Sequence record: OR896157.1
Origin: a phage
Reading direction: 5' to 3' (one strand)
DNA: 64,000 nucleotides
In this document: positions 2,817 to 31,193 of the stretch, piece after piece
Numbering within the stretch: position 1 is the first letter of the stretch
How the letters are laid out: each line of letters begins with the position of its first letter
Notes under the pieces: model-generated
The model's input: only the letters and a program-made list of their open reading frames with translations
Databases searched by the model: none
What the model was told of the DNA's origin: nothing
Position numbers and translations under genes: made by a program

Positions 2817-3110
2817 TTAGCCTCGGAAGAAGTCCGCGAAGAGCTTCTTAGCTTCGTTTAGAGTTTCTGCCACATCTTCAACTTCTGCATCAAGCACTGC
2901 AGTCATGTCATAGTTGTTGACGTATACCCATACCAGCACGTAGTTTTCGCTTTCGCTGTTATACCAAATTGTCAGATAGCTATTGCTATCAGTGTTTGAT
3001 GAGTGCAGGCGTGCTGCATGCATTGCGTCGTCAAGGTCAACACCTGAGTTAGCCAGTAAAGCATTTAAGTTATTGATTAAAGTTTCCATAATTTCCTCAT
3101 TTTGCAACAT
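2817..3110 (-). CDS. hypothetical acidic protein (97 aa)
   Basis: minus-strand ORF. Confidence 0.45.
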   Translation of the reverse strand: MLQNEEIMETLINNLNALLANSGVDLDDAMHAARLHSSNTDSNSYLTIWYNSESENYVLVWVYVNNYDMTAVLDAEVEDVAETLNEAKKLFADFFRG

Positions 3111-3360
3111 AAGCTTCTAAGACTTCTTCAAATTCGCCTTCAAGTTCAGGGCATCCTGCGAAGTCCGCCTCTAAAGTTTCTAAATCAATCAGAACTTCAG
3201 TTAAAATGTATTGACTTTCATTATGGTCATAAACCATAGCCCAATAACGTGCTTGAGTATTCTTGTCAATTGACATTCTGTTAAATTTAACATAAGCGAA
3301 ATCAGAAGTTTCCGCGATAATACCAGCATTTGTTAAGGCAGCAACGATAATTGAAATCAT
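3097..3360 (-). CDS. hypothetical acidic protein (87 aa)
   Basis: minus-strand ORF downstream of an early promoter. Confidence 0.45.
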   Translation of the reverse strand: MISIIVAALTNAGIIAETSDFAYVKFNRMSIDKNTQARYWAMVYDHNESQYILTEVLIDLETLEADFAGCPELEGEFEEVLEAYVAK

Positions 3361-3391
3361 TTTGTTTACTCCGTTTGGTTTTGATAGAGCT

Positions 3392-3420
3392 ATAATACCA
3401 TAAGCAAACGATGATGTAAA
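3392..3420 (-). promoter_or_regulatory. early promoter (TTTACA-17-TATTAT)
   Basis: minus strand aaccgTTTACA, 17 nt ending TGG, TATTAT. Confidence 0.55.
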
Positions 3421-3490
3421 CGGTTGAGTTAAAGAATTTTTAAAGTTAACCAGAACGGTTGAGGGATTGTGCGTAGAAAGGATGATTAAT
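3421..3490 (-). repeat. promoter-upstream module, copy A (shared blocks gtaaacggttga / ccagaacggttgag / aaggatgatNaat)
   Basis: same three blocks in the same order recur at 54507-54575 upstream of another early promoter. Confidence 0.5.
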
Positions 3491-3496
3491 TATATG

Positions 3497-3522
3497 GACT
3501 CGGCTCTAGAATTAACTAGAGC
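3497..3522 (-). terminator. stem-loop downstream of gene 52 (GGCTCTAG-loop-CTAGAGCC)
   Basis: perfect 8-bp inverted repeat just after the gene 52 stop; no clear U-tract. Confidence 0.3.
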
Positions 3523-3545: not shown

Positions 3546-4925
3546 TTAGAGAGCCTCTAGGTCCTTCATATACTCAATTTCTGGAGTAGTTTCTTGCCAG
3601 TACTTCAGCTCAGCTTTCAGGTCTTTAGCTTGTTGAGCAAGTTTCTTTGCTTCGTCACTTGTGATGTGATAGATGTTCATTGACACTAACTTGTCAACAA
3701 ATGGTGCATAAGTTGGACGAGATTCAAGTTCAGAAGTCAGTTGTTTACGAGTTTTGCCTTGAATGACAATACTACCTTCAATAACTTCTTTGATGAACAT
3801 CGCTTTAGCCAAAGCTAATTTGAATGCTTCATCGCATTCTTTGACTTTGTGTTCAATTCGTTTGACAATGTAAGTCTTACGAACTTCCACAAAGTGCTTG
3901 ATAAGTTCAGAAGAACTTTGGAACTTATCGTTTAACTTTCCGTTTTCATCAATGACCACGATGAATTGAGACATCTTCTCAACCAATTTGAAGTCACGCA
4001 TGATTTTCTCATGCCGCTGCTCATCGTCTTGGCCAAGCATATAATCTTTCTTGAACTTCACTTTAAAGCCAAAGCCGGTCTTTGAACAATCATCAACGTA
4101 AGAGATGAAGTTCTTATCTACCATTGGCTCAAGTACTTTTTCCACATAAGTTTCGCGGTCAAACTTAGCTGGAATTTCGCTGATGTACATTTGAGATGCT
4201 GAAGTGAACTTATAAAGACCACGGCATTCAATTGACCCATCTTCAAGACGAACTACTTCACCGCGGAATTGTGGAATTTGAACTTCTGGTTCTTTATCCA
4301 GTTTTCCTTGAAGAGCTAATTTAGTACATTCAACTACTGATTCAAAATTATGTGGAAGAATCTTAGTAGCATAACCAGTTGCAATTCCCTGTACACCGTT
4401 CAGAAGGACGGTTGGAATAATTGGAAGATAGAATGCAGGTGGAACGTGCTCTTTATCTTTATGCTCTGGAGCAATTTCAGTGTCTTTATAGACCTTACGG
4501 AAATTGTCAGAAATACGACAGAAGATATAACGAGATGCTGCCGCTTTTTGTACCAATCGTGAACCGAAGTTTCCTTGACCATCCAAAAGAGGATAGTTGT
4601 TGTTCCAAGTGTTAGCCATAAGCGCGCCAGCATCTTGTGCCGAGCCTTCGCCATGGTGATAACCGAGGTCAGCAACACCACCTGCCACAGAAGCCAATTT
4701 ATGGAATTTTTCTTTATTACCACGAGACAAATCTAGTGCACGAGCAATAACAAATCGTTGAACTGGCTTGAAGCCATCAATTAAGTTAGGAATTGCACGG
4801 TTTTCTACTGTGTAGATTGCAAATTCTTTGGCTTCATTGTCAATGATGCTTTGAAGGTTTCTTACATTAAGTTGACCAACAGAGTCATCGAGTTGTTTAG
4901 ACATCATGTCAAAAATAGTTGTCAT
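3546..4925 (-). CDS. 52: DNA topoisomerase II medium subunit gp52 (GyrA/ParC-like)
   Basis: 459 aa; contains IPNLIDGFKPVQRFVIARALDL and LDGQGNFGS topoisomerase motifs; matches remembered T4 gp52. Confidence 0.9.
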   Translation of the reverse strand: MTTIFDMMSKQLDDSVGQLNVRNLQSIIDNEAKEFAIYTVENRAIPNLIDGFKPVQRFVIARALDLSRGNKEKFHKLASVAGGVADLGYHHGEGSAQDAGALMANTWNNNYPLLDGQGNFGSRLVQKAAASRYIFCRISDNFRKVYKDTEIAPEHKDKEHVPPAFYLPIIPTVLLNGVQGIATGYATKILPHNFESVVECTKLALQGKLDKEPEVQIPQFRGEVVRLEDGSIECRGLYKFTSASQMYISEIPAKFDRETYVEKVLEPMVDKNFISYVDDCSKTGFGFKVKFKKDYMLGQDDEQRHEKIMRDFKLVEKMSQFIVVIDENGKLNDKFQSSSELIKHFVEVRKTYIVKRIEHKVKECDEAFKLALAKAMFIKEVIEGSIVIQGKTRKQLTSELESRPTYAPFVDKLVSMNIYHITSDEAKKLAQQAKDLKAELKYWQETTPEIEYMKDLEAL

Positions 4926-5246
4926 ATTACCCTACCAGATTAAATTACCGATGTTCATCATAACACGAGCAAGAAAAAGCACTATTTCGCCCATCACATA
5001 AACAGCTCCGGCTAAAGCGCCGGAGAGTAATATTGACACACCAATAACGCCTATTGAGAGTTTCATTTTATTAAGCCTGTGTAATAGAACAAACGTTCTA
5101 CAGCTAATGCAGCTACACCAAAGCACATGCTTCCAATGACTCTTGGCGGAGGGGTTAACCCCTCCCAAATAAACAGACCAGAAGCGATGAAAAGCGGAGC
5201 CATGAGCAAGAACACCAAAGCCCAAATCTGTTTGAACGGACTCATA

Positions 5247-22939: not shown

Positions 22940-23176
22940 TTATTCAGAAGGCGTAACGTCAAACAGAGTTTCGTTAGCAGCAATCCACTCGGCACGCTGA
23001 TTTCGTTCAAACACCGTAGAATACGCTGGTTTTTCAGATGGGAAAACCTGGTAGTGAGCATTAGCGATACGATGAACGTCAGAATACAGTTCAAATGCTA
23101 CAGAAATTTCTTTACCTTTTACTTCACCAGCAGAAGTCTGATGATCGAAAGTTTTTACGTTTACATAACCGGCCAT
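22940..23176 (-). CDS. soc: Soc small outer capsid protein
   Basis: 78 aa; GYVNVKTF...GKEISVAFELYSDVHRIANAHYQVFPSEKPAYSTVFERNQRAEWIAANE matches remembered T4 Soc. Confidence 0.85.
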   Translation of the reverse strand: MAGYVNVKTFDHQTSAGEVKGKEISVAFELYSDVHRIANAHYQVFPSEKPAYSTVFERNQRAEWIAANETLFDVTPSE

Positions 23177-23204
23177 TGTAATCTCCTTTAATTAGTTACA
23201 AGTC

Positions 23205-23212
23205 TATTTATT
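23205..23212 (-). promoter_or_regulatory. late-promoter-like motif AATAAATA, 28 nt upstream of soc ATG
   Basis: soc is a late gene in T4; 7 of 8 match to TATAAATA. Confidence 0.35.
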
Positions 23213-23573
23213 CAATAATACTGGCAACCTGTAACTCAAAGTTTTTAGTTCTGATAGTTTCAATAGCCGAATTCATTTCTTCTGTGTTTCCGCTAACAAC
23301 AATATCAGAAAAACTTTCATGAAGATTAACGAGTTCTTCGCTTCTTTCCATGAACTCTTGTTGAGTTATTTCAAGTTTAAAGAACTCTTTAGGAACTTCA
23401 AAGGTGTATTGACCCTTGGCTGCGATAACCCATTTTCCAAAACTGGATTTTATAGCTACATAGTCTTCAGGAGTGTTAAACTTCCAATGAGCTCTGTCAG
23501 CGTAAGCCGTGCTATGCTCAGCCGGAGAAGCTGGTCTCCCAGCTTTCTGCCACGCGTAATAATCAAATTTCAT
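23208..23573 (-). CDS. hypothetical protein (121 aa)
   Basis: minus-strand ORF, 1-nt overlap with gene 56. Confidence 0.5.
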   Translation of the reverse strand: MKFDYYAWQKAGRPASPAEHSTAYADRAHWKFNTPEDYVAIKSSFGKWVIAAKGQYTFEVPKEFFKLEITQQEFMERSEELVNLHESFSDIVVSGNTEEMNSAIETIRTKNFELQVASIIE

Positions 23574-24091
23574 TAATAACCTCGGTCTTGTCGAGCAAAG
23601 TTCTCTGCGTTTTTCAGATAATAGAGTTTGAACACTTCTTCAGCTGTCATACCAAGAGCCATAATTTTATTCAGGAAGAAGTGTAACTGGTCAATCAACT
23701 CAAATTTAATTTCAAGCTGGTCTTCTGGTGATAAGTCTTTAATTTTCTTAGACTGCATTTCTACATGTTGAGCTTTCCAAGGTTTCCACACAGCAGATGC
23801 TGCTTTTTCACCATTGCTCATACCGCCAAGTGCAGTATACAATTCGCGAGTTTCGTCTGCGATATAATCATCTTGAGCTCGCAACCAAGCTAGTACTTCA
23901 CCTGCGGTTTCCAGAGAATCTGGATGACGATTACTGAATGGTTTATCTTCAGCAAGACGAACTTGAAGAGATTTCTGCATATCGAGCATTACTTGCAGAG
24001 GATCTTGATGATTATCAATTACTGCATTATACGCACCGTTTGCTTGGTCCGCGCCTTCAATTAGATGTGAGCATTCATTAAAATGAGCCAT
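23573..24091 (-). CDS. 56: dCTP pyrophosphatase gp56
   Basis: 172 aa; MAHFNEC.HLIEG...DPLQVMLDMQ...EIKFEL.D..HF.LN...LGM.AEE.FKLYYLKN.ENFARQDRGY matches remembered T4 gp56. Confidence 0.9.
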   Translation of the reverse strand: MAHFNECSHLIEGADQANGAYNAVIDNHQDPLQVMLDMQKSLQVRLAEDKPFSNRHPDSLETAGEVLAWLRAQDDYIADETRELYTALGGMSNGEKAASAVWKPWKAQHVEMQSKKIKDLSPEDQLEIKFELIDQLHFFLNKIMALGMTAEEVFKLYYLKNAENFARQDRGY

Positions 24092-24136: not shown

Positions 24137-24421
24137 TTATTTAGCAACGAATCCAAGGTTTTCAGACATTTTGCGGAATTTTTCCATCTTTTCAAATTTC
24201 TTCCAAACTTCTTCTCTGTCTTCTACGAAATCGAAATCAGTATGCACTCGCAAATTCAGAAGACAGCCCATGATGTCGTTTAATTCAGCTATTAATCTTT
24301 CACGATTAGTTTTGCCTTCATATTCTGAGTCAATTCCGAATTGAATAATCTTAGAGCAAAGCATTGCGACTTCAGTACATTCTTCGCCTAACTTAAGAAA
24401 GGCATGTTGTTCTTTATTCAT
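24137..24421 (-). CDS. hypothetical protein (94 aa)
   Basis: coupled ORF downstream of primase. Confidence 0.45.
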   Translation of the reverse strand: MNKEQHAFLKLGEECTEVAMLCSKIIQFGIDSEYEGKTNRERLIAELNDIMGCLLNLRVHTDFDFVEDREEVWKKFEKMEKFRKMSENLGFVAK

Positions 24422-25443
24422 ATTTTAGCATACCGAGTAAATCTCATCTTAGCCATTAAGCCTGATTCGATATTGTTGTTGATGTAATCCATGATTTGTT
24501 CAGGTGTAGCACCTTCTTTCATAATCATGTCGTTCACGTCTTTTGAAGACCAAGGTGACTTGTCCCAAAAGACGACTTTTTCTCCAGCATCAATAAGCTT
24601 CTTCATACGCTTTATTGTATCTGGATGACGAGGTTCATGGTCCATAATCCAAGCACGATTACCTTCATACGGAACCATGCTCAACTCAATAGAACCACCA
24701 GTAATTGCGATAGCATTGTTGATGAACAAACTATCTAATGGTCCTTCCATAACAAACACGAGCTTATTAGGGTCAACGGTATCTTGACCATAAATTTTCG
24801 TAGCAAGCTCATGAGCTTTAATTGTCATGTATTTTTGGGGAGCGTCTTTTGAGAGGGCTCGCCCTTGGAAGGATTCAATTTTGCCTTTTTCATTAAAGAT
24901 TGGAATAACCAAGCGCGGTTCATTTTTCTCATGTGAGTATGTACCTTCGTTTACTGAGTTAACGAGAGCCGGCCATTGAGTAGTAAACCACAGTCGGTTC
25001 CATTTATCTTTAGGAATTTTACGTCCTGCAACGTATTTACATATCGGATGAGCTGGTGAAAGCCTATCTAATCGCTCACAATAATCAAGCTTTTGAATGA
25101 ATTTCTTTTCAACCGGAGGAAGTTTAACTTCTTTCTTAGGAGCTGAACGAGCTTGACCTTGTTCTTTACGAACTTCAAGAATGTACTCTCGATATAAGTC
25201 AGGTTCATTTTCTCGCAGATATTTAGCTAATCCTAAGTGTGCATCACAGTTATAGCAATGGACTACAATTCCGCCAGTTGGTTGTTCATATGCCCATCCA
25301 CGAGCTTTGAATTGGTCTTTTTGTGAGTCACCACAAATTGGACAGCGGAAATTCAGTTTAAAACGATGACCGTTTGTTACTTGTTTGAATCTTGGAAGGT
25401 GTGAAAATGCGCGGTATGCAAATTCATTGTCGACCCATGACAT
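24418..25443 (-). CDS. 61: DNA primase gp61 (zinc ribbon plus TOPRIM)
   Basis: ATG at 25443; WVDNEFAYRA...FRCP.CGDS...CYNC zinc ribbon and C-terminal ...DKSPW.SKDVNDMI.KEGATPEQIM.Y..NNI..GLMAKMR...YAKI match remembered T4 gp61. Confidence 0.9.
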   Translation of the reverse strand: MSWVDNEFAYRAFSHLPRFKQVTNGHRFKLNFRCPICGDSQKDQFKARGWAYEQPTGGIVVHCYNCDAHLGLAKYLRENEPDLYREYILEVRKEQGQARSAPKKEVKLPPVEKKFIQKLDYCERLDRLSPAHPICKYVAGRKIPKDKWNRLWFTTQWPALVNSVNEGTYSHEKNEPRLVIPIFNEKGKIESFQGRALSKDAPQKYMTIKAHELATKIYGQDTVDPNKLVFVMEGPLDSLFINNAIAITGGSIELSMVPYEGNRAWIMDHEPRHPDTIKRMKKLIDAGEKVVFWDKSPWSSKDVNDMIMKEGATPEQIMDYINNNIESGLMAKMRFTRYAKI

Positions 25444-25486
25444 ATTATTCTCCAAAAGAATTGGCCTTATTTCTAAGGCCATTATA

Positions 25487-25951
25487 TCACAGTTTATTGA
25501 GATTTACTTTGATGCGCTTACGTTTCTTTGGTAGGGTCTCAGGACCTTTATTGGTGATTGCTCCGGTTGTGGTACCAGAGGCGATATTCTGGACACTTCC
25601 ACCGGAATCTCCGGCTACCATGTCCTCGAACAAGGGAAGAGCCTCAAATATCTCTTTTTGTTCGGATTCAGTGATATTGTAACGTGAAGCTACTGCAGAC
25701 CATGCACTCATCATGGATGCTACTCCATTGAGTCCTGGAACAGTTGTTAACATTCTTTTGATTGAACGAACCGATGCGTGGAAAGCTGTATAAGCCGCTT
25801 TCTCTTCTGGAGTAGTAGGTCGCTTCAGAACCGTACCCTTTTCATCGATTATCTTGGCTTCATATGCTTTCCATTCAGTGAATGGTTTTTGCATTAGCCG
25901 GATAAACTTATACGCATAGACGGCGTCAATACCGCTTTTAATAGTTGACAT
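25487..25951 (-). CDS. hypothetical protein (154 aa)
   Basis: minus-strand ORF with GGAGA RBS; ATAAATA motif 13 nt upstream. Confidence 0.5.
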   Translation of the reverse strand: MSTIKSGIDAVYAYKFIRLMQKPFTEWKAYEAKIIDEKGTVLKRPTTPEEKAAYTAFHASVRSIKRMLTTVPGLNGVASMMSAWSAVASRYNITESEQKEIFEALPLFEDMVAGDSGGSVQNIASGTTTGAITNKGPETLPKKRKRIKVNLNKL

Positions 25952-25966
25952 AGTCTCCTCTTCTAT

Positions 25967-26155
25967 TTATCGTTTAACACAAACGAATTTAGCAGAGGTT
26001 GAAAAATCACGAGCAGAAGTGCGCCACTCTTCACCAGCTTGGTTACACAGTTCTTCGGCAGTTGGGCCGGTTTGTGTTGGCTTGAATTCAATTTGGTTCA
26101 TAGCGACTCCGCCGTGTTCACTAATGAGAGTCATGATTAAAATGAATGTGTGCAT
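25967..26155 (-). CDS. hypothetical protein (62 aa)
   Basis: minus-strand ORF. Confidence 0.4.
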   Translation of the reverse strand: MHTFILIMTLISEHGGVAMNQIEFKPTQTGPTAEELCNQAGEEWRTSARDFSTSAKFVCVKR

Positions 26156-26346
26156 CGTCTTTCCTGCTCTGTTTTAATTGCAACCAATATTAAACCTTTA
26201 CGATAAGATTCACGAGGGTCCGCCGGAAATCCCCAACGAGTAAGTCCAGTTTCAATTTCACGTTCAAACCGTAAACGAAGCTGAGCCAATTCAGCGTCAT
26301 GATAATCTACAAGGTCTCTACCTTCAAAAATCATAAGCCAATCCAC
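26137..26346 (-). CDS. hypothetical protein (69 aa)
   Basis: minus-strand ORF. Confidence 0.4.
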   Translation of the reverse strand: MDWLMIFEGRDLVDYHDAELAQLRLRFEREIETGLTRWGFPADPRESYRKGLILVAIKTEQERRCTHSF

Positions 26347-26612
26347 TCTAAAACTTCTGGAACAGAAGCATTTTCACAATACAGATTTGTGCCAGCTACT
26401 ACCAGGTCACTTTCGCCCAGGTCTTCGATTAGCATCTTTTGGTTCTTATCTGCACCAGCTTCAAGGTCATGAATCAGCTTAGGCTTAACTTTGTCCCAGT
26501 CACCTTCAACAAACTTGATACATGGAATTGAAGTGTAATCTGCTTTAGCCATAGCTGGAACAGCAGAGCAGGATGATACAGCAAAGATTAATGCAAGTAC
26601 AAGTTTTTTCAT
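26331..26612 (-). CDS. predicted lipoprotein (93 aa)
   Basis: ATG at 26612 after GAGGAAAA RBS; MKKLVLALIFAVSSC with lipobox VSSC. Confidence 0.5.
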   Translation of the reverse strand: MKKLVLALIFAVSSCSAVPAMAKADYTSIPCIKFVEGDWDKVKPKLIHDLEAGADKNQKMLIEDLGESDLVVAGTNLYCENASVPEVLEWIGL

Positions 26613-26641
26613 TTTATTTTCCTCAAATAGAGCCACATGCC

Positions 26642-26917
26642 TTATGCGCATACAAAATTGCTAGCGCGAACCAGACGAAAATCACCTGCTGCGTAGATAC
26701 CCATCGTTACATGGTCGCTAGTATCTAAGTAAGGGGGTACAATAACTTTAACCAATCCACCGTTGTCTAGAATTTCACGAATTACACCATCACAACGCAA
26801 ATTTGCGTCTTCAGCCTTGCGAACTATAGAACCAACTTTAAACGGTGTTGTCAGGATATTTGCTTTGTGAGTGCGAGCGGTTTCATCGATAAGTTTTTCA
26901 ATTGTCCAGATTGCCAT
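26642..26917 (-). CDS. hypothetical protein (91 aa)
   Basis: ATG at 26917 after AGAGGAAAA RBS. Confidence 0.45.
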   Translation of the reverse strand: MAIWTIEKLIDETARTHKANILTTPFKVGSIVRKAEDANLRCDGVIREILDNGGLVKVIVPPYLDTSDHVTMGIYAAGDFRLVRASNFVCA

Positions 26918-26946
26918 GATGTTTTCCTCTTGTTTGGTATGAGGTA

Positions 26947-26975
26947 ATAGTAACACACTTCCATGTGCGTGTAAA
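26947..26975 (-). promoter_or_regulatory. early promoter (TTTACA-17-TACTAT)
   Basis: just below gene 41 stop; its -10 side shares a 22-bp tract with the promoter at 58306-58334. Confidence 0.5.
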
Positions 26976-26978
26976 CGG

Positions 26979-28421
26979 TTAGAATTTGAGGTCTTCAGCC
27001 AATGCATCGAGTTTAGCTCTTGCACTAGCGTTTTGTTCAACACGAGTCATTCGGTTACCTTCTGCAACTCGTTGCTGAGCGCCAGAAGTCTCTTTGACTG
27101 AAGTTGGTTGTTCACCATGTTCTTGAGCTATTTCTACCCAACGCTGATTGCCTTTACTTACACCAATCAAGAACTTATTGTTGATGTTCTTATCACCATA
27201 ACGAGACTTAATCTGCTTGATGAGCTGTTGACCTTGTTGAGCAAGTTCTTCAGTTTCAATTACCGCTAGCATAAAGTCTGCTGTTGCTGGTAGACCCGCG
27301 GATTCTGCAACATCACTCATTGAAACGTCAGAAGCATCCCAACCTGAACGAGTCGTCTGAGCTGCTGTCCACAAAACAGTTTCAGATTCAACAGCCAATG
27401 CACGAAGTTCTTCTGCAATAGCTTTAACTAATGTGTAGCTGTTTTCGGTATAAACTTTAATACGACAAGAAGCACAGATACCCAGATAGTCAATAATGAT
27501 GACATCAGGAACGAAATTCTTCTTCAGTTTAAGTTCATTCAATAACGCACGGAACGTATTTGCATGAGCTCCACCTGTTGGATATTGCTTGATAATCAGA
27601 CGACCAAGAGTATTCTTTGAGCGCCATTTTTCCATCTTACCTTTGTATTCAGCATATGAAATATGACCATCATCAATATCGTCCAACGATACATCAAGTA
27701 AGTTAGCATCAATACGTTTTGCGCAAACTTCTTCTGCCATTTCCATGGAGATATACAGAACGTTCTTACCCATCTGAAGATAGTCAGCAGCAAGAGAACA
27801 CAGACCTAATGACTTACCAACGTTTACACCGGCGAGTAATACGTTCAAAGTACCAGTCTCTGCACCGCCTTTTGTGATTCGGTTCAGAATATTGAGTTTG
27901 AATGCAACCTTACGAGCTTTATTCTGATAAGCTAACCAACGAGCTTCATGGTCTTCCATCCAATCATGACCAATGTAACTATCAAATGAAATTGACAGAG
28001 CAGCTCGCATGATGTCTGGAATTGCACCTACATCAGGAAGTTTTTTGTTTCGTTTTTCTGGTGGAAGTTGGGCGTTAGTCTGAATTTCAATAATCTTTGA
28101 TGTTGCATTGTACATCGCAGATTCTTGAACAAAACGTTCAGTTTCGGCTACGAGCCAGTTTAAATCTTCTGGAGTATCTTGAAGCTTATTAATTAACTCA
28201 CTTGCGCCCTGTACTTCAGTTTCAACTAACTGACTATTATCCAAAGCTACCGCTAATGCAGTTTTACTTGGAACAGCTTGATATTTAAGAACGTGCTGAT
28301 GAATCAGTTTGAAAACATTTTTGGCTGGGCCATGTTCAAAATACTCATCTCCCATATAAGGCCAAACCTTCGCGAAGAAGGCCTGATTATACAGCAAATG
28401 AGATAAGATTGTTTCTACCAC
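26979..28421 (-). CDS. 41: replicative DNA helicase gp41 (DnaB-like)
   Basis: 480 aa; long near-identical blocks to remembered T4 gp41 (e.g. ILSHL...KVWPYM, GVNVGKSLGLCSLAADYLQ); start codon GTG after GAGGT RBS. Confidence 0.9.
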   Translation of the reverse strand: MVETILSHLLYNQAFFAKVWPYMGDEYFEHGPAKNVFKLIHQHVLKYQAVPSKTALAVALDNSQLVETEVQGASELINKLQDTPEDLNWLVAETERFVQESAMYNATSKIIEIQTNAQLPPEKRNKKLPDVGAIPDIMRAALSISFDSYIGHDWMEDHEARWLAYQNKARKVAFKLNILNRITKGGAETGTLNVLLAGVNVGKSLGLCSLAADYLQMGKNVLYISMEMAEEVCAKRIDANLLDVSLDDIDDGHISYAEYKGKMEKWRSKNTLGRLIIKQYPTGGAHANTFRALLNELKLKKNFVPDVIIIDYLGICASCRIKVYTENSYTLVKAIAEELRALAVESETVLWTAAQTTRSGWDASDVSMSDVAESAGLPATADFMLAVIETEELAQQGQQLIKQIKSRYGDKNINNKFLIGVSKGNQRWVEIAQEHGEQPTSVKETSGAQQRVAEGNRMTRVEQNASARAKLDALAEDLKF

Positions 28422-28431
28422 GATAACCTCA

Positions 28432-28818
28432 TTAAAATAGTTTGAAACGTTTTTTCTTTCTCATAATTTCGGCGTGAGCCTGTTGAATTTGTATTTTAAT
28501 ACATTTTTCAACATGTGGTGCAAGGTCGGCTTTTCGTGATTCGTCCAACGTAGAGAACTCTAGTGACACCTGGCCGCTTTCGTCCAAGTGTAATGAGGTA
28601 ACATATACGATATGTTCCTCGCCATCCTCTAGGGTTATCAGGATTTCCTGAACGACATTCTCCATAGCCTTTTGGACTATTTCTAGACTCTTTTTAAACA
28701 TCCGCTCAGTTCTTTCAAATTCCCCCTCCTGAGAGGGGGTTTCGTCCTGAACTTCAACTTCAGTCAAATCGAGGTCTAAGTCCTCGAAATTATTCTTCAT
28801 CGTAATTTTCCAGTTCAT
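28432..28818 (-). CDS. hypothetical acidic protein at the T4 gene 40 position
   Basis: sits between 41 and uvsX; sequence identity to T4 gp40 not recognised. Confidence 0.4.
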   Translation of the reverse strand: MNWKITMKNNFEDLDLDLTEVEVQDETPSQEGEFERTERMFKKSLEIVQKAMENVVQEILITLEDGEEHIVYVTSLHLDESGQVSLEFSTLDESRKADLAPHVEKCIKIQIQQAHAEIMRKKKRFKLF

Positions 28819-29953
28819 CTTCGATTGAAGCTGGAGTTGCTCTTACTTCGCCTTCCGGAGCATGGAACTCTTCGGTCTTCGAATTAATCAGAGCATCAAC
28901 TTCTTCATCTACTACTGCATTGGTTTCAATAGCACCCAGCTGATAGCGATTTTTAATAGCATCGCGGAATGGCTGATGTTTAAACAGAGGGCCCCAGAAT
29001 GCGGTGCTTGAAGTATCTTTTGCACGCCATGATTTCTCTTCGCGAACCATTTCACCGGTATCTACGTCCAGATATTCACGAGCATACCAACCGTTTTTAG
29101 GTTTAACTACAAAACCAAGTTCCAGCGCCATATCCAACAGACCAGAGTATGGGTCAATACCGCCATCGAATTTAACATCAATGAAGAACTTACTCTTCTC
29201 TTTAACGGTACGAGATTTCTCAGCATTCAGAACAAACTGATAACCTTGAAGGTCTGTACCATCTTTAATCTGACGCTTACCGATGATGAACACAGTATCT
29301 GCTGAGTACATTGGACCTGTACCACCAGTCATCACAGTCTTACTGAACATCTCAATTGTTTCGATCGTGTGGTTAACCGCAACGCATGGAATGTTTTTAA
29401 TAGAGAAGTAAGGTGTAACAATACGGAACAGAGACTTCAGTGATTTCGCACGAGTCATATCTGCAACTGATTTTTCGTTCAGAGCATCTTCTGTTTCTTT
29501 CTTAGAAGCAAGGTTACCGATGGAGTCGATGAATACGATAACTTTCTCACCGCGTTCAATTTCTTCCAGCTGGTTGACCATGTCAATCTTAAGCTGCTCA
29601 ACAGATTGCACAGGAGTGTGTACTACACGGTCCGGGTCAACACCCATTGCACGAAGATATGCTGGAGTGATACCGAATTCTGAGTCGTAGAACAGACAAA
29701 TAGCATCCGGATATTTTGTCATATAAGCGGAAACCATAGTCAGACTCATATTTGACTTGAAGTGCTTTGACGGGCCCGCAAAGATTGTTAAACCTGATTG
29801 CATGCCACCATCTAATGCACCTGAAATCGCGATATTAAGCATCGGAATCTTAGTACGAACTACATCCTTTTCATTGAAGAATTTGGATTTATCCAGAGAT
29901 GCGGTCATTTTAGAAGTGGATGCTTTAATCAGACGAGATTTTAAATCAGACAT
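28790..29953 (-). CDS. uvsX: UvsX recombinase (RecA-like)
   Basis: 387 aa; RecA-fold with Walker A-like GPSKHFKS, matches remembered T4 UvsX. Confidence 0.9.
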   Translation of the reverse strand: MSDLKSRLIKASTSKMTASLDKSKFFNEKDVVRTKIPMLNIAISGALDGGMQSGLTIFAGPSKHFKSNMSLTMVSAYMTKYPDAICLFYDSEFGITPAYLRAMGVDPDRVVHTPVQSVEQLKIDMVNQLEEIERGEKVIVFIDSIGNLASKKETEDALNEKSVADMTRAKSLKSLFRIVTPYFSIKNIPCVAVNHTIETIEMFSKTVMTGGTGPMYSADTVFIIGKRQIKDGTDLQGYQFVLNAEKSRTVKEKSKFFIDVKFDGGIDPYSGLLDMALELGFVVKPKNGWYAREYLDVDTGEMVREEKSWRAKDTSSTAFWGPLFKHQPFRDAIKNRYQLGAIETNAVVDEEVDALINSKTEEFHAPEGEVRATPASIEDELENYDEE

Positions 29954-30116: not shown

Positions 30117-31193
30117 TTAGATTTCAATTGCTTTCTTGAATTCAGCTTGCCAAATTGGTTTTTCATCAAGATATTTTTGAAGAATTTTATGCTGATATTC
30201 GAGAGTTTCAATTCTAAAGTCCTCGTCGTTTTTGATTTTATTAATTTTTTCAACAAGCTCTTGACGATTGCTCACATAGAAGAACTCATTACCTTCCATG
30301 ATATTCATGTCAGGGTCAAATGTGCTATCGAAGAATGCCACTGCAGTAGATGCCAGAGCTTCCCATACACGAGGAGTGATTTGGTTATTATCGTAAGTCT
30401 TATCACCGAGTACGATAGTAGCATACGCGGTTGAGTTACGTTGAACCATTTCACGAGAATCTACCTTCCCAGGAAATACTGGAGGAGTAGTCCAAGGGAA
30501 TTCTGGATTCTTGAATTGGTCTGCCTTTACTGAACCAAAGAACTCAACATCCAGGCCAGTGTCAAACAGATATTCAACCATCTTAGCTTCACGATTACCT
30601 GAACGGAATGTTCCACCATAAATCAGGTCACGCATTTTGATGCCATCAGCAGCAATCTTGAAGACGCTGTGATACATCTTATGACGGTCCAGTGCGAAGT
30701 GTACAAATTCCATTCGGTCTTTAGAGACACCGACTAAACGGTCAGAGTGAATTCGTTTAGCTTGTTCAAGGTCACGGCCCTGAGAAATTACGCGAATTGG
30801 AGAGCGAACAATGAACTGCTCTTCAGTGTATTTGCTGGACCATTTTTTCTTCGACATTCGGCGCCACGCTTGTTCCCACGGAAGACGAATATCAGTGAAC
30901 AGATAATAAATCTTTGACTTATATTTGTTCAAGAACATATAAGCCGCTTTATTCATCTTGTTCTCTTCACCACCGTAGAAGTTCAGAGAAGCATTAACTA
31001 CCAGAACTCGGTCATATACATTCGGGTCTGGGACATCATCAAATGCGATGCCATATTGAGTATTTTTCATTGAAATGAGGTCAACATCAAGCCCCATATC
31101 TTTTAAGCATTCGGACAGATAAATTGTCTCAGAAGCAGGGGTTGTTTTAAACCCCTGGATGTTGTTACCTAAGTTCAGGATAGCAATTTTCAT
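30117..31193 (-). CDS. bgt: DNA beta-glucosyltransferase
   Basis: 358 aa; MKIAI.N.GNN...KSKIYYLFTDIRLP...IYGG.FRSG.RE.KMVE.LFDTGL..EFFG...QFKNP..PWT..PVF.GK matches remembered T4 beta-gt; same locus. Confidence 0.8.
   Translation of the reverse strand: MKIAILNLGNNIQGFKTTPASETIYLSECLKDMGLDVDLISMKNTQYGIAFDDVPDPNVYDRVLVVNASLNFYGGEENKMNKAAYMFLNKYKSKIYYLFTDIRLPWEQAWRRMSKKKWSSKYTEEQFIVRSPIRVISQGRDLEQAKRIHSDRLVGVSKDRMEFVHFALDRHKMYHSVFKIAADGIKMRDLIYGGTFRSGNREAKMVEYLFDTGLDVEFFGSVKADQFKNPEFPWTTPPVFPGKVDSREMVQRNSTAYATIVLGDKTYDNNQITPRVWEALASTAVAFFDSTFDPDMNIMEGNEFFYVSNRQELVEKINKIKNDEDFRIETLEYQHKILQKYLDEKPIWQAEFKKAIEI

Follow-up and report, generated by a model that had tools for sequence, protein, structure and literature searches.

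Five small genes separating helicase gene 41 from primase gene 61

A phage DNA stretch of 64,000 nucleotides (sequence record OR896157.1, hereafter the window) was analyzed for the five small open reading frames (ORFs) which occupy positions 25,487 to 26,917, between the replicative helicase gene 41 and the primase gene 61. These five ORFs are very probably the Karamvirus version of an ancestral 41-61 block of small genes in T4 and the Tevenvirinae, and not a lineage-specific insertion. The source phage could be assigned to Karamvirus as a PG7/CC31-like relative of T4 (Straboviridae, Tevenvirinae), and its region 24400-28450 shared 98% identity with PG7, which infects Enterobacter, and with the Klebsiella phage KaAlpha, whereas identity to CC31 was 95.5%. 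All genes across the studied region were located on the minus strand, and the ORFs were arranged from gene 41 to gene 61 as ORF-A, sp, ORF-C, ORF-D and ORF-E. By sequence comparison, sp and ORF-E (61.1) are orthologues of T4 genes, and the other three belong to uncharacterised phage families.

The window had been described before from its letters alone, and this sequence-only reading held that genes 41 and 61 are adjacent in T4 and that the five ORFs were inserted between them. The first statement is false, for dmd, 61.4, sp, 61.2 and 61.1 lie between the two genes in the T4 reference genome. Since T4 carries five small genes from helicase to primase, the window is syntenic with T4 and not interrupted relative to it. 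The five ORFs themselves are real and were annotated in PG7 and CC31, except that the one given as 69 amino acids (aa) is most likely 65 aa long.

The same gene backbone was found in other genera. Between 41 and 61, the Moonvirus phage Moon carries an ORF-A-like gene, sp, an ORF-D-like gene and a long 61.1, and the Moonvirus phage KM16 showed the minimal form, with sp, an ORF-D-like gene and a long 61.1. The order in JD18 (Jiaodavirus) was x, ORF-A-like, sp, ORF-D-like and short 61.1, with x standing for a further gene, and that in PEi20 (Kanagawavirus) was x, sp, x, 61.4, ORF-D-like, short 61.1 and mobE. Eight genes, a long 61.1 among them, were present in BL02 (Slopekvirus). The orthology groups across genera were upheld by all-against-all BLAST and PHROG assignments. 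The comparison with related genomes, which had been proposed as a way to define the insertion, therefore defined none, and the claim of a lineage-specific insert was refuted by an ancestral block syntenic with T4, Moonvirus, Jiaodavirus, Kanagawavirus and Slopekvirus.

It could still be argued that an accessory cassette entered a replication operon in which 41 and 61 are normally neighbours, since the block comes with a promoter-like site of its own and varies in content within Karamvirus. The PG7-type and CC31-type alleles of ORF-A are only about 39% identical. In CC31-type genomes a further Cys-rich gene of 111 aa (phrog_28853; 4747-5082 of the retrieved CC31 stretch) sits between the ORF-D and ORF-C homologues, and the window lacks it. 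A homing endonuclease (mobE-like) was found between 61.1 and 61 in some Karamvirus genomes (KMB19, at 1245-1883 of the retrieved stretch) and in Kanagawavirus PEi20 (2895-3503). Against such an insertion stand the five T4 genes in the same interval, the presence of sp and 61.1 in the same order in both phages, the minimal 41-sp-D-61.1-61 arrangement of KM16, and the GC content, which was 0.40-0.44 across the block and about 0.36-0.43 in the flanks without a composition break. On this evidence an inserted cassette is extremely improbable. The 61.1-61 junction, which holds only a hairpin spacer in the window, looks like a recurrent homing site. The extra CC31 gene (p032) was also considered as a relative of AdfA and rejected, as the likeness was limited to 11 C-terminal residues (DDDIFNAWMKR and DDQIFNAFMNR) and was not significant.

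The five ORFs were tightly packed and preceded by Shine-Dalgarno sequences, and some of them overlapped, ORF-C and ORF-D by 19 nucleotides (nt). Purifying selection was detected on all five, with ratios of non-synonymous to synonymous substitution (dN/dS) of 0.02-0.11 within the genus. As synonymous changes far exceeded non-synonymous ones in every gene against CC31, KMB19 and Moon, all five are real protein-coding genes, including the genus-restricted one of 65 aa. The alternative view of the ORFs as broadly conserved core genes with known roles was borne out in part, as the role of sp is known and the 154-aa gene, matched in 1,473 phage records, ranks among the most widely conserved small genes of T4-like phages.

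Sp belongs to the T4 Spackle family

The 93-aa product of sp (26331-26612, minus strand) begins with a Sec signal peptide (PAMA↓K, residues 1-22), and its mature domain contains the conserved cysteines C31 and C79 as a pair. The protein matched the Pfam family T4_Spackle (PF25676) with 104.2 bits (cutoff 27, E 5.6e-30) over profile positions 1-94 of 96, and phrog_1586 with an E value of 6.8e-33. The signal peptide, MKKLVLALIFAVSSCSAVPAMA, has an A-x-A site and is followed by K. When six Sp proteins from five genera were aligned, C15, A22, Y26, C31, D38 and C79 were invariant, and C31 and C79 aligned with C29 and C81 of T4, which form the disulfide of T4 Spackle (PMC7650644). T4 Spackle is cut after residue 22 (AMA↓G) according to N-terminal (Edman) sequencing, is released as a soluble periplasmic protein, and binds the lysozyme domain of gp5 1:1, by which the gp5 lysozyme is inhibited (PMC7650644). 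The mature domain of the window protein, which belongs to a divergent Karam/Moon-type clade, was identical to that of T4 at 11 of 69 positions (~16%), and only the signal peptide matched the PDB 6x6o sequence in a phmmer search.

The signal peptide (26547-26612) was identical to that of T4 at 14 of 22 positions, compared to 11 of 69 in the mature domain. Signal peptides normally evolve fast, and the conservation of the Spackle signal therefore hints at mosaic recombination or at a further constraint on this segment, for which lipidation, retention in the membrane or a signal at the RNA level could be responsible.

The description of one ORF as a lipoprotein applied to this gene, and it was right in so far as the lipobox pattern [LVI][ASTVI][GAS]C is fitted by V-S-S-C15 with an invariant cysteine. 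In that case signal peptidase II would cut before Cys15, and the protein would be lipid-anchored rather than soluble in the periplasm. A lipobox-like [LVA]-[SA]-[SAT]-C was indeed invariant in the six Sp proteins despite mature domains of 16-19% identity, and the signal peptide was the best conserved part of Sp (20/22 identical between the window and JD18, and 13/68 in the mature part). However, the protein is a homologue of T4 Spackle, whose L-A-S-C also fits the pattern and yet is cut at residue 22/23; the form released from the periplasm starts at residue 23 by Edman sequencing (PMC7650644), and the A-x-A site is conserved in the Spackle alignment as well. This only weakens the lipoprotein model, because the Edman experiment is blind to a lipidated, N-blocked and membrane-bound fraction, and we consider lipidation unlikely.

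ORF-E is the full-length form of T4 gp61.1

ORF-E (25487-25951, minus strand) encodes 154 aa, was assigned to phrog_2086 (PHROG E value 1.8e-72) and represents T4 gp61.1 in full length. Its N-domain (about residues 1-95) was predicted to be helical and folded, and its C-terminal module to be disordered; the AF2 model reached a predicted local distance difference test (pLDDT) score of 83-88 for residues 10-70 and below 50 for residues 109-146. No fold match was found when the model was searched against the PDB with Foldseek. ORF-E and T4 gp61.1 (54 aa) shared 70% identity over 37 aa, and the C-terminal 45 residues were 68-70% identical, with the pattern MVAGDSGG..NI..GTT.GA..NKGPE..PKK. As the C-terminal third of ORF-E is matched to this degree, the 54-aa T4 protein represents a truncated form.

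Members of the gp61.1 family (phrog_1823 and phrog_2086) are characterized by the motif MVAGDSGG...NIASGTTTGA..NKGP, a basic tail and a location directly upstream of the primase gene, all of which were found for ORF-E. Matches to the family were present in 1,473 phage records, of which 600 hold the full-length form, and a profile search returned 1,834 cluster representatives at E<=1e-3. Many of the profile matches shared only the N-terminal domain of ~100 aa (phrog_18642). Judged from these matches, the family spans the Straboviridae, and the N-domain reaches the Kyanoviridae and Emdodecavirus. In phages of Acinetobacter and Vibrio, in Slopekvirus and in the Sinorhizobium phage phiM12, the gene precedes that of the primase either directly or within one or two genes; a 61.1-like gene was also found near the primase in Melnitz, and at 3.3 kb from it in a Kyanoviridae phage. 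Being so widespread and primase-linked, ORF-E comes close to a core gene and is thus the reverse of what an accessory insert would be.

Only uncharacterised relatives, some of 387-913 aa, were recovered from BFVD with ORF-E. The long relatives of the N-domain (A0A411BBR2, 672 aa; A0A1B1IT15, 913 aa; A0A7S5R3P1, 387 aa; others of 470 and 490 aa) have large extra regions without a Pfam match, and several of them keep an E-x-PTNV-GDAG-related motif and very basic C-termini. A hidden Markov model (HMM) of the ORF-E N-domain revealed no paralogue among the gp23 propeptide, scaffold and internal proteins.

In its tail, ORF-E resembles the major capsid protein gp23 at the maturation junction

Residues 99-147 of ORF-E (25511-25657, minus strand) form a gp23-like module that reads KEIFEALPLFE and continues, after the possible cleavage site, with DMVAGDSGGSVQNIASGTTTGAITNKGPETLPKKRKRI. 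In a blastp comparison this segment was 41% identical to residues 52-102 of PG7 gp23 (E 2e-7). An HMM of the C-terminal 64 columns of the family matched PG7 and T4 gp23 with 45 bits (E 5e-13) and nothing else above noise among 1,122 ORFs, and with gp23 as the query, a reverse tblastn recovered 61.1-like genes from five phages, one of which infects Vibrio. From these sequence matches, the ORF-E tail is assigned as homologous to gp23 residues 52-105, spanning the cleavage site. The shared segment covers the end of the gp23 propeptide, the cleavage site and the N-terminal arm of mature gp23. In cryo-electron microscopy this arm lies inside the unexpanded prohead, where it probably touches the scaffold; at a later stage it gives rise to the N-fist and to the site at which Soc binds (PMC9546572).

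Within the module, L107-F108-E109 (nt 25625-25633) is an L-x-E motif such as the prohead protease of T4 cleaves, and the counterpart of LFE↓DM in gp23 is LTE↓AE, which we take to be the site of maturation cleavage by gp21. E109 was conserved in at least 90% of 58 family sequences, and all 16 diverse family members compared kept the Glu together with L, I, V or M as the hydrophobic residue at -2, though the motif is short and would often occur by chance. The cleavage motif of gp21 is L/I-X-E (PMC9026906).

The short forms of gp61.1 were compared with the internal proteins of T4. Their N-termini read MKTFKEFIKE in T4, MKTYKEFVTE in JD18 and MKTFKEFVNE in PEi20, and those of the internal proteins read MKTYQEFIAE (IPII and IPIII) and MKTFKEF (IPI). 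In the capsid-targeting sequence, positions 4 and 7 are critical for targeting, and 8 and 10 for processing (PMC9026906). With an aromatic residue at 4, Phe at 7, Ile/Leu at 8 and Glu at 10 of the N-terminal 10 residues as the criterion, the short forms matched the critical positions, bar Val at 8 in JD18. In the long form of the window, the equivalent segment F102-E-A-L-P-L-F-E109 is internal instead of N-terminal and contains a Pro insertion.

The canonical late promoter TATAAATA was found within 90 nt upstream of the 61.1 homologues in none of nine genomes. Late-promoter-like variants were present there, namely GATAAATA in Karamvirus, AATAAATA in JD18 and CATAAATA in Acinetobacter phages.

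Many records of the gp61.1 family with ~155 aa carry the label "major capsid protein", including BL02_28, KM16 gp058 and that of KaAlpha, and the UniRef names for EcS1, fHyAci03 and GAP161. This is an annotation error which stems from the local homology of ~50 residues to the N-terminal junction of gp23; the protein has no HK97-fold body.

ORF-A, ORF-C and ORF-D

ORF-A (26642-26917, minus strand; 91 aa; phrog_27384) is the first gene after the promoter-like site and lies just upstream of sp. An N-terminal helix followed by an SH3-like small beta-barrel was predicted, for which the nearest known folds were the SH3-like barrels of BAH, Tudor, KOW and SH3 domains. In a word-indexed protein search, ORF-A as a single query retrieved only itself, and an alignment query retrieved 8 relatives.

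ORF-C (26137-26334, minus strand; phrog_25939) most likely starts at ATG 26334, which gives 65 aa (69 aa from an upstream GTG) and overlaps the sp stop as ATGA. The same start was annotated in PG7, and also in CC31, where an earlier stop leaves 63 aa. The gene was found in Karamvirus only, in 33 records of at least 90% identity. Its dN/dS was 0.08-0.10, with 12-14 synonymous and 5 non-synonymous differences.

ORF-D (25967-26155, minus strand; 62 aa; phrog_6794, PHROG E value 5.5e-27) is hydrophobic near its N-terminus, contains a GG turn and has invariant cysteines at two positions, C37 and C59. It was matched in 42 phage records, with orthologues in Karam-, Moon-, Jiaoda- and Kanagawavirus, always immediately upstream of the 61.1 gene, and its dN/dS was 0.03. 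From the sequence pattern we guess at a Dmd-like beta-beta-alpha-beta topology; the hhalign probability of the ORF-D family against T4 Dmd was 0.15%.

For ORF-A, ORF-C, ORF-D and ORF-E, no match was obtained in Pfam and NCBIfam at permissive thresholds. The PHROG families of ORF-A, ORF-C and ORF-D differed from those of Dmd (phrog_2102), TifA (phrog_2375) and AdfA (phrog_3781), and no match to T4 Dmd, TifA or AdfA was returned by tblastn across the whole 64-kb window.

Promoter-like site, hairpin and flanking genes

An early-type promoter-like site (26947-26975, minus strand) begins 3 nt past the stop of gene 41 and consists of GTTTACA, a spacer of 17 nt and TACTAT, with TG before the -10 element. 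In T4, GTTTACA...TATAGT was found directly after the gene 41 stop, at the same position, and dmd-tifA are documented to be transcribed from this T4 site as their early promoter (PMC9391042). The shared position supports the promoter of the window.

At the other end of the block, a terminator-like hairpin (25462-25481, minus strand) with an 8-base-pair stem, a GAAA loop and a following UUCUUUU lies inside the 43-nt spacer from the ORF-E stop to the ribosome-binding site and start of gene 61. Its predicted RNA fold had -14.7 kcal/mol (z -3.4), and none of 200 shuffled sequences was as stable. Phage Moon has an annotated terminator at the matching position. An Rfam search of the region returned nothing credible.

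Gene 61 (24418-25443, minus strand; phrog_47, 4e-102) most likely starts at ATG 25443, as in CC31 and T4, rather than at 25482, a placement suggested by comparison with the T4 N-terminus and by the CC31 annotation. Gene 41 (26979-28421, minus strand) was identified by DnaB_C and phrog_19. Its GTG start at 28421 gives an N-terminus (28356-28421) of VVETILSHL..., matching VVEIILSHL... of T4 gp41, which is likewise GTG-started. The PG7 and CC31 records place the start 22 codons inward, and gp41 is therefore probably truncated there. Gene 40 (28432-28818) and uvsX (28790-29953) lie beyond gene 41, also on the minus strand.

Downstream of gene 61 (24137-24421 and 22940-23573), a small MazG-like NTP pyrophosphohydrolase (24137-24421, minus strand), the gp56 dCTPase (23573-24091, minus strand), a 121-aa "head protein" and soc were found; unlike in T4, dam and segF were absent. 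The capsid-decoration gene soc is located ~2.3 kb from 61.1, and the T4 gp23 segment which 61.1 resembles is part of the Soc-binding site. A beta-glucosyltransferase homologue is encoded at 30117-31193, and its neighbour in PG7 is annotated as a beta-glucosyl-HMC-alpha-glucosyltransferase. Together, the two annotations point to a genome with glucosylated hydroxymethylcytosine of the T2/T6 gentiobiosyl type.

Discussion

Our work is mainly of corrective value. The five ORFs constitute an already annotated and known kind of gene block, the normal T-even-type set of small genes between 41 and 61, and one of them is the well-studied Spackle. The block would be transcribed early as one unit. By analogy with T4 Spackle, Sp would be exported through Sec and bind the lysozyme domain of the tail-spike protein gp5, and in this way shield the infected cell from gp5 that is free or brought in by superinfecting phages. 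Judged by where they lie and how small they are, ORF-A, ORF-C and ORF-D are most likely binding or inhibitor proteins directed at host factors, and the generic SH3-like binding fold of ORF-A also points to a binding role. In ORF-E, the N-domain would carry a disordered tail that copies the gp23 maturation junction and N-terminal arm.

The T4 interval has been described as a probable island against toxin-antitoxin systems, in which Dmd acts against RnlA, TifA against ToxN and AdfA against DarT, and its remaining genes were named "attractive anti-toxin candidates" (Srikant, Guegler and Laub 2022, PMC9391042). The anti-defence or host-takeover role proposed for the window block agrees with this published thinking and is reasonable by analogy with the T4 interval, the argument being one of position, with no detectable homology to the T4 proteins. 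The three proven anti-toxin genes of the T4 block are replaced in the window by three unrelated, conserved and uncharacterised genes, which are therefore sensible first candidates for counter-defence screens of Enterobacter phages.

Several observations weigh against this functional picture. In blastp comparisons of ORF-A, ORF-C and ORF-D with Dmd, TifA and AdfA, no hit was better than E 0.65. Inhibition of gp5 by the window Sp follows only from family membership, because the mature domain is ~16% identical to that of T4. A scan for sigma-70-like promoters found 6 sites compared with 9.2 +/- 2.9 in shuffled sequences, which is not above chance, and since the sites were fewer than in the shuffles, the match at 26947-26975 proves nothing alone. 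The early promoter claimed for the block thus stands as a sigma-70-like site with a T4 counterpart at the same position, without the backing of the scan. Finally, knock-down of T4 61.1, 61.2, sp and 61.4 by CRISPR interference caused no fitness defect in the laboratory host, and that of dmd did (PMC11879866 supplement), which fits conditional, host-dependent roles of the former genes.

The last gene of the block ties a very widespread "hypothetical" family to the gp23 maturation junction and to the capsid-targeting signal of T4. Because its tail copies a capsid segment, ORF-E probably interacts with the partner of that segment, either the core or the protease of the prohead. We suggest tentatively that the gp61.1 family is an unrecognised mimic of the capsid junction, in which the tail copies the gp23 segment and T4-type phages swapped the N-domain for a targeting leader. 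Most economically, the tail would interact with the prohead core or protease in the manner of gp23 and the internal proteins, and the minimal leader of the T4 type would have replaced the N-domain. If so, even T4 would encode, beside the primase gene, a peptide inside the head that has so far escaped description and is possibly ejected, or else a protein that regulates the maturation of the head.

A more specific form of this idea is that ORF-E is itself a head-internal protein, which is targeted to the prohead core by the segment in common with the gp23 propeptide junction and the capsid-targeting sequence, and cut by gp21 after the conserved L/I-x-E (E109 in the window), so that a basic peptide of ~45 aa is kept in the head and possibly ejected with the DNA. 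The homology of the C-terminal module to gp23 residues 52-105, cleavage site included, the Glu and hydrophobic residue kept in 16/16 members, the leaders of the short forms which resemble the N-termini of IPI, IPII and IPIII at the critical positions, the predicted disorder of the tail, and the place of the gp23 N-terminal region in the prohead in contact with scaffold (PMC9546572) all fit it. On the other hand, the transcription unit of the gene is an early or middle one, a late promoter upstream is not conserved beyond variants such as GATAAATA or AATAAATA in some genera, and the motif of the long form (FEALPLFE) is internal and degenerate, with its Pro insertion. A literature search for gp61.1 in T4 heads and virion proteomics found no report, and the T4 61.1 knock-down had no phenotype (PMC11879866 supplement). 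Taken together, this fate of ORF-E is possible but doubtful. A replication accessory factor acting with the primase or primosome, to which the capsid likeness would be incidental, would explain why the gene lies (almost) directly upstream of 61 in phages of Enterobacteria, Acinetobacter and Vibrio and in phiM12, and at 3.3 kb in the Kyanoviridae phage, even without gene 41 nearby, and a basic C-terminal tail would suit it. This linkage is weak, however, since synteny is generally conserved in T4-like replication modules. T4-type phages lost the entire N-domain and retained only the capsid-like peptide, the gp23 match is statistically strong (E 5e-13), and a fusion to a primase domain was seen in 0/10 long relatives scanned, which makes such a factor improbable.

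The tail might also serve as an early decoy, mimicking the N-terminal arm of the capsid protein and so forestalling a defence system or protease of the host by which this segment is sensed or attacked. The early-type promoter, the disordered mimic segment and the anti-defence island formed by the block in T4 (PMC9391042) would be in line with a decoy. But the near-universal conservation across very different hosts is atypical of anti-defence genes, which are usually patchy. Moreover, the similarity to gp23 ends where the Gol region sensed by Lit presumably starts, and we know of no sensor of the gp23 segment that the ORF-E tail resembles. A decoy is quite unlikely on these grounds.

Comparison with known systems

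The gene order of T4 is 41, dmd (61.5), 61.4/tifA, sp (61.3), 61.2/adfA, 61.1 and 61. The block of the window shares with it the location and orientation between 41 and 61, the number of five small genes, sp in the middle, 61.1 as the last gene before 61, and a GTTTACA early-type promoter directly after gene 41. Differently from T4, the window has no homologues of dmd, tifA and adfA and carries three unrelated genes (phrog_27384, phrog_25939 and phrog_6794) instead, 61.1 is present in the 154-aa long form, and a hairpin parts the block from gene 61. T4 Spackle (gp61.3; PDB 6X6O, 6XC0 and 6XC1) and the window Sp share the Pfam family, the signal peptide with its PAMA site, the cysteine pair and the genomic slot, whereas the mature domain of the latter has diverged, and its binding to gp5 is presumed by analogy.

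Both gp61.1 of T4 and ORF-E are encoded directly upstream of gene 61. ORF-E has an additional conserved N-terminal domain of ~100 aa, in place of which T4 gp61.1 has a 10-residue leader of the capsid-targeting type. With gp23, ORF-E shares an aromatic-x-x-(F/L)-(I/L)-x-E segment followed by x-(V/I)-(A/G)-G-D-x-G...NIA-G-xT-GA-T--GP; unlike gp23, it has no HK97-fold body and bears the module at the C-terminus of a small protein from an early region.

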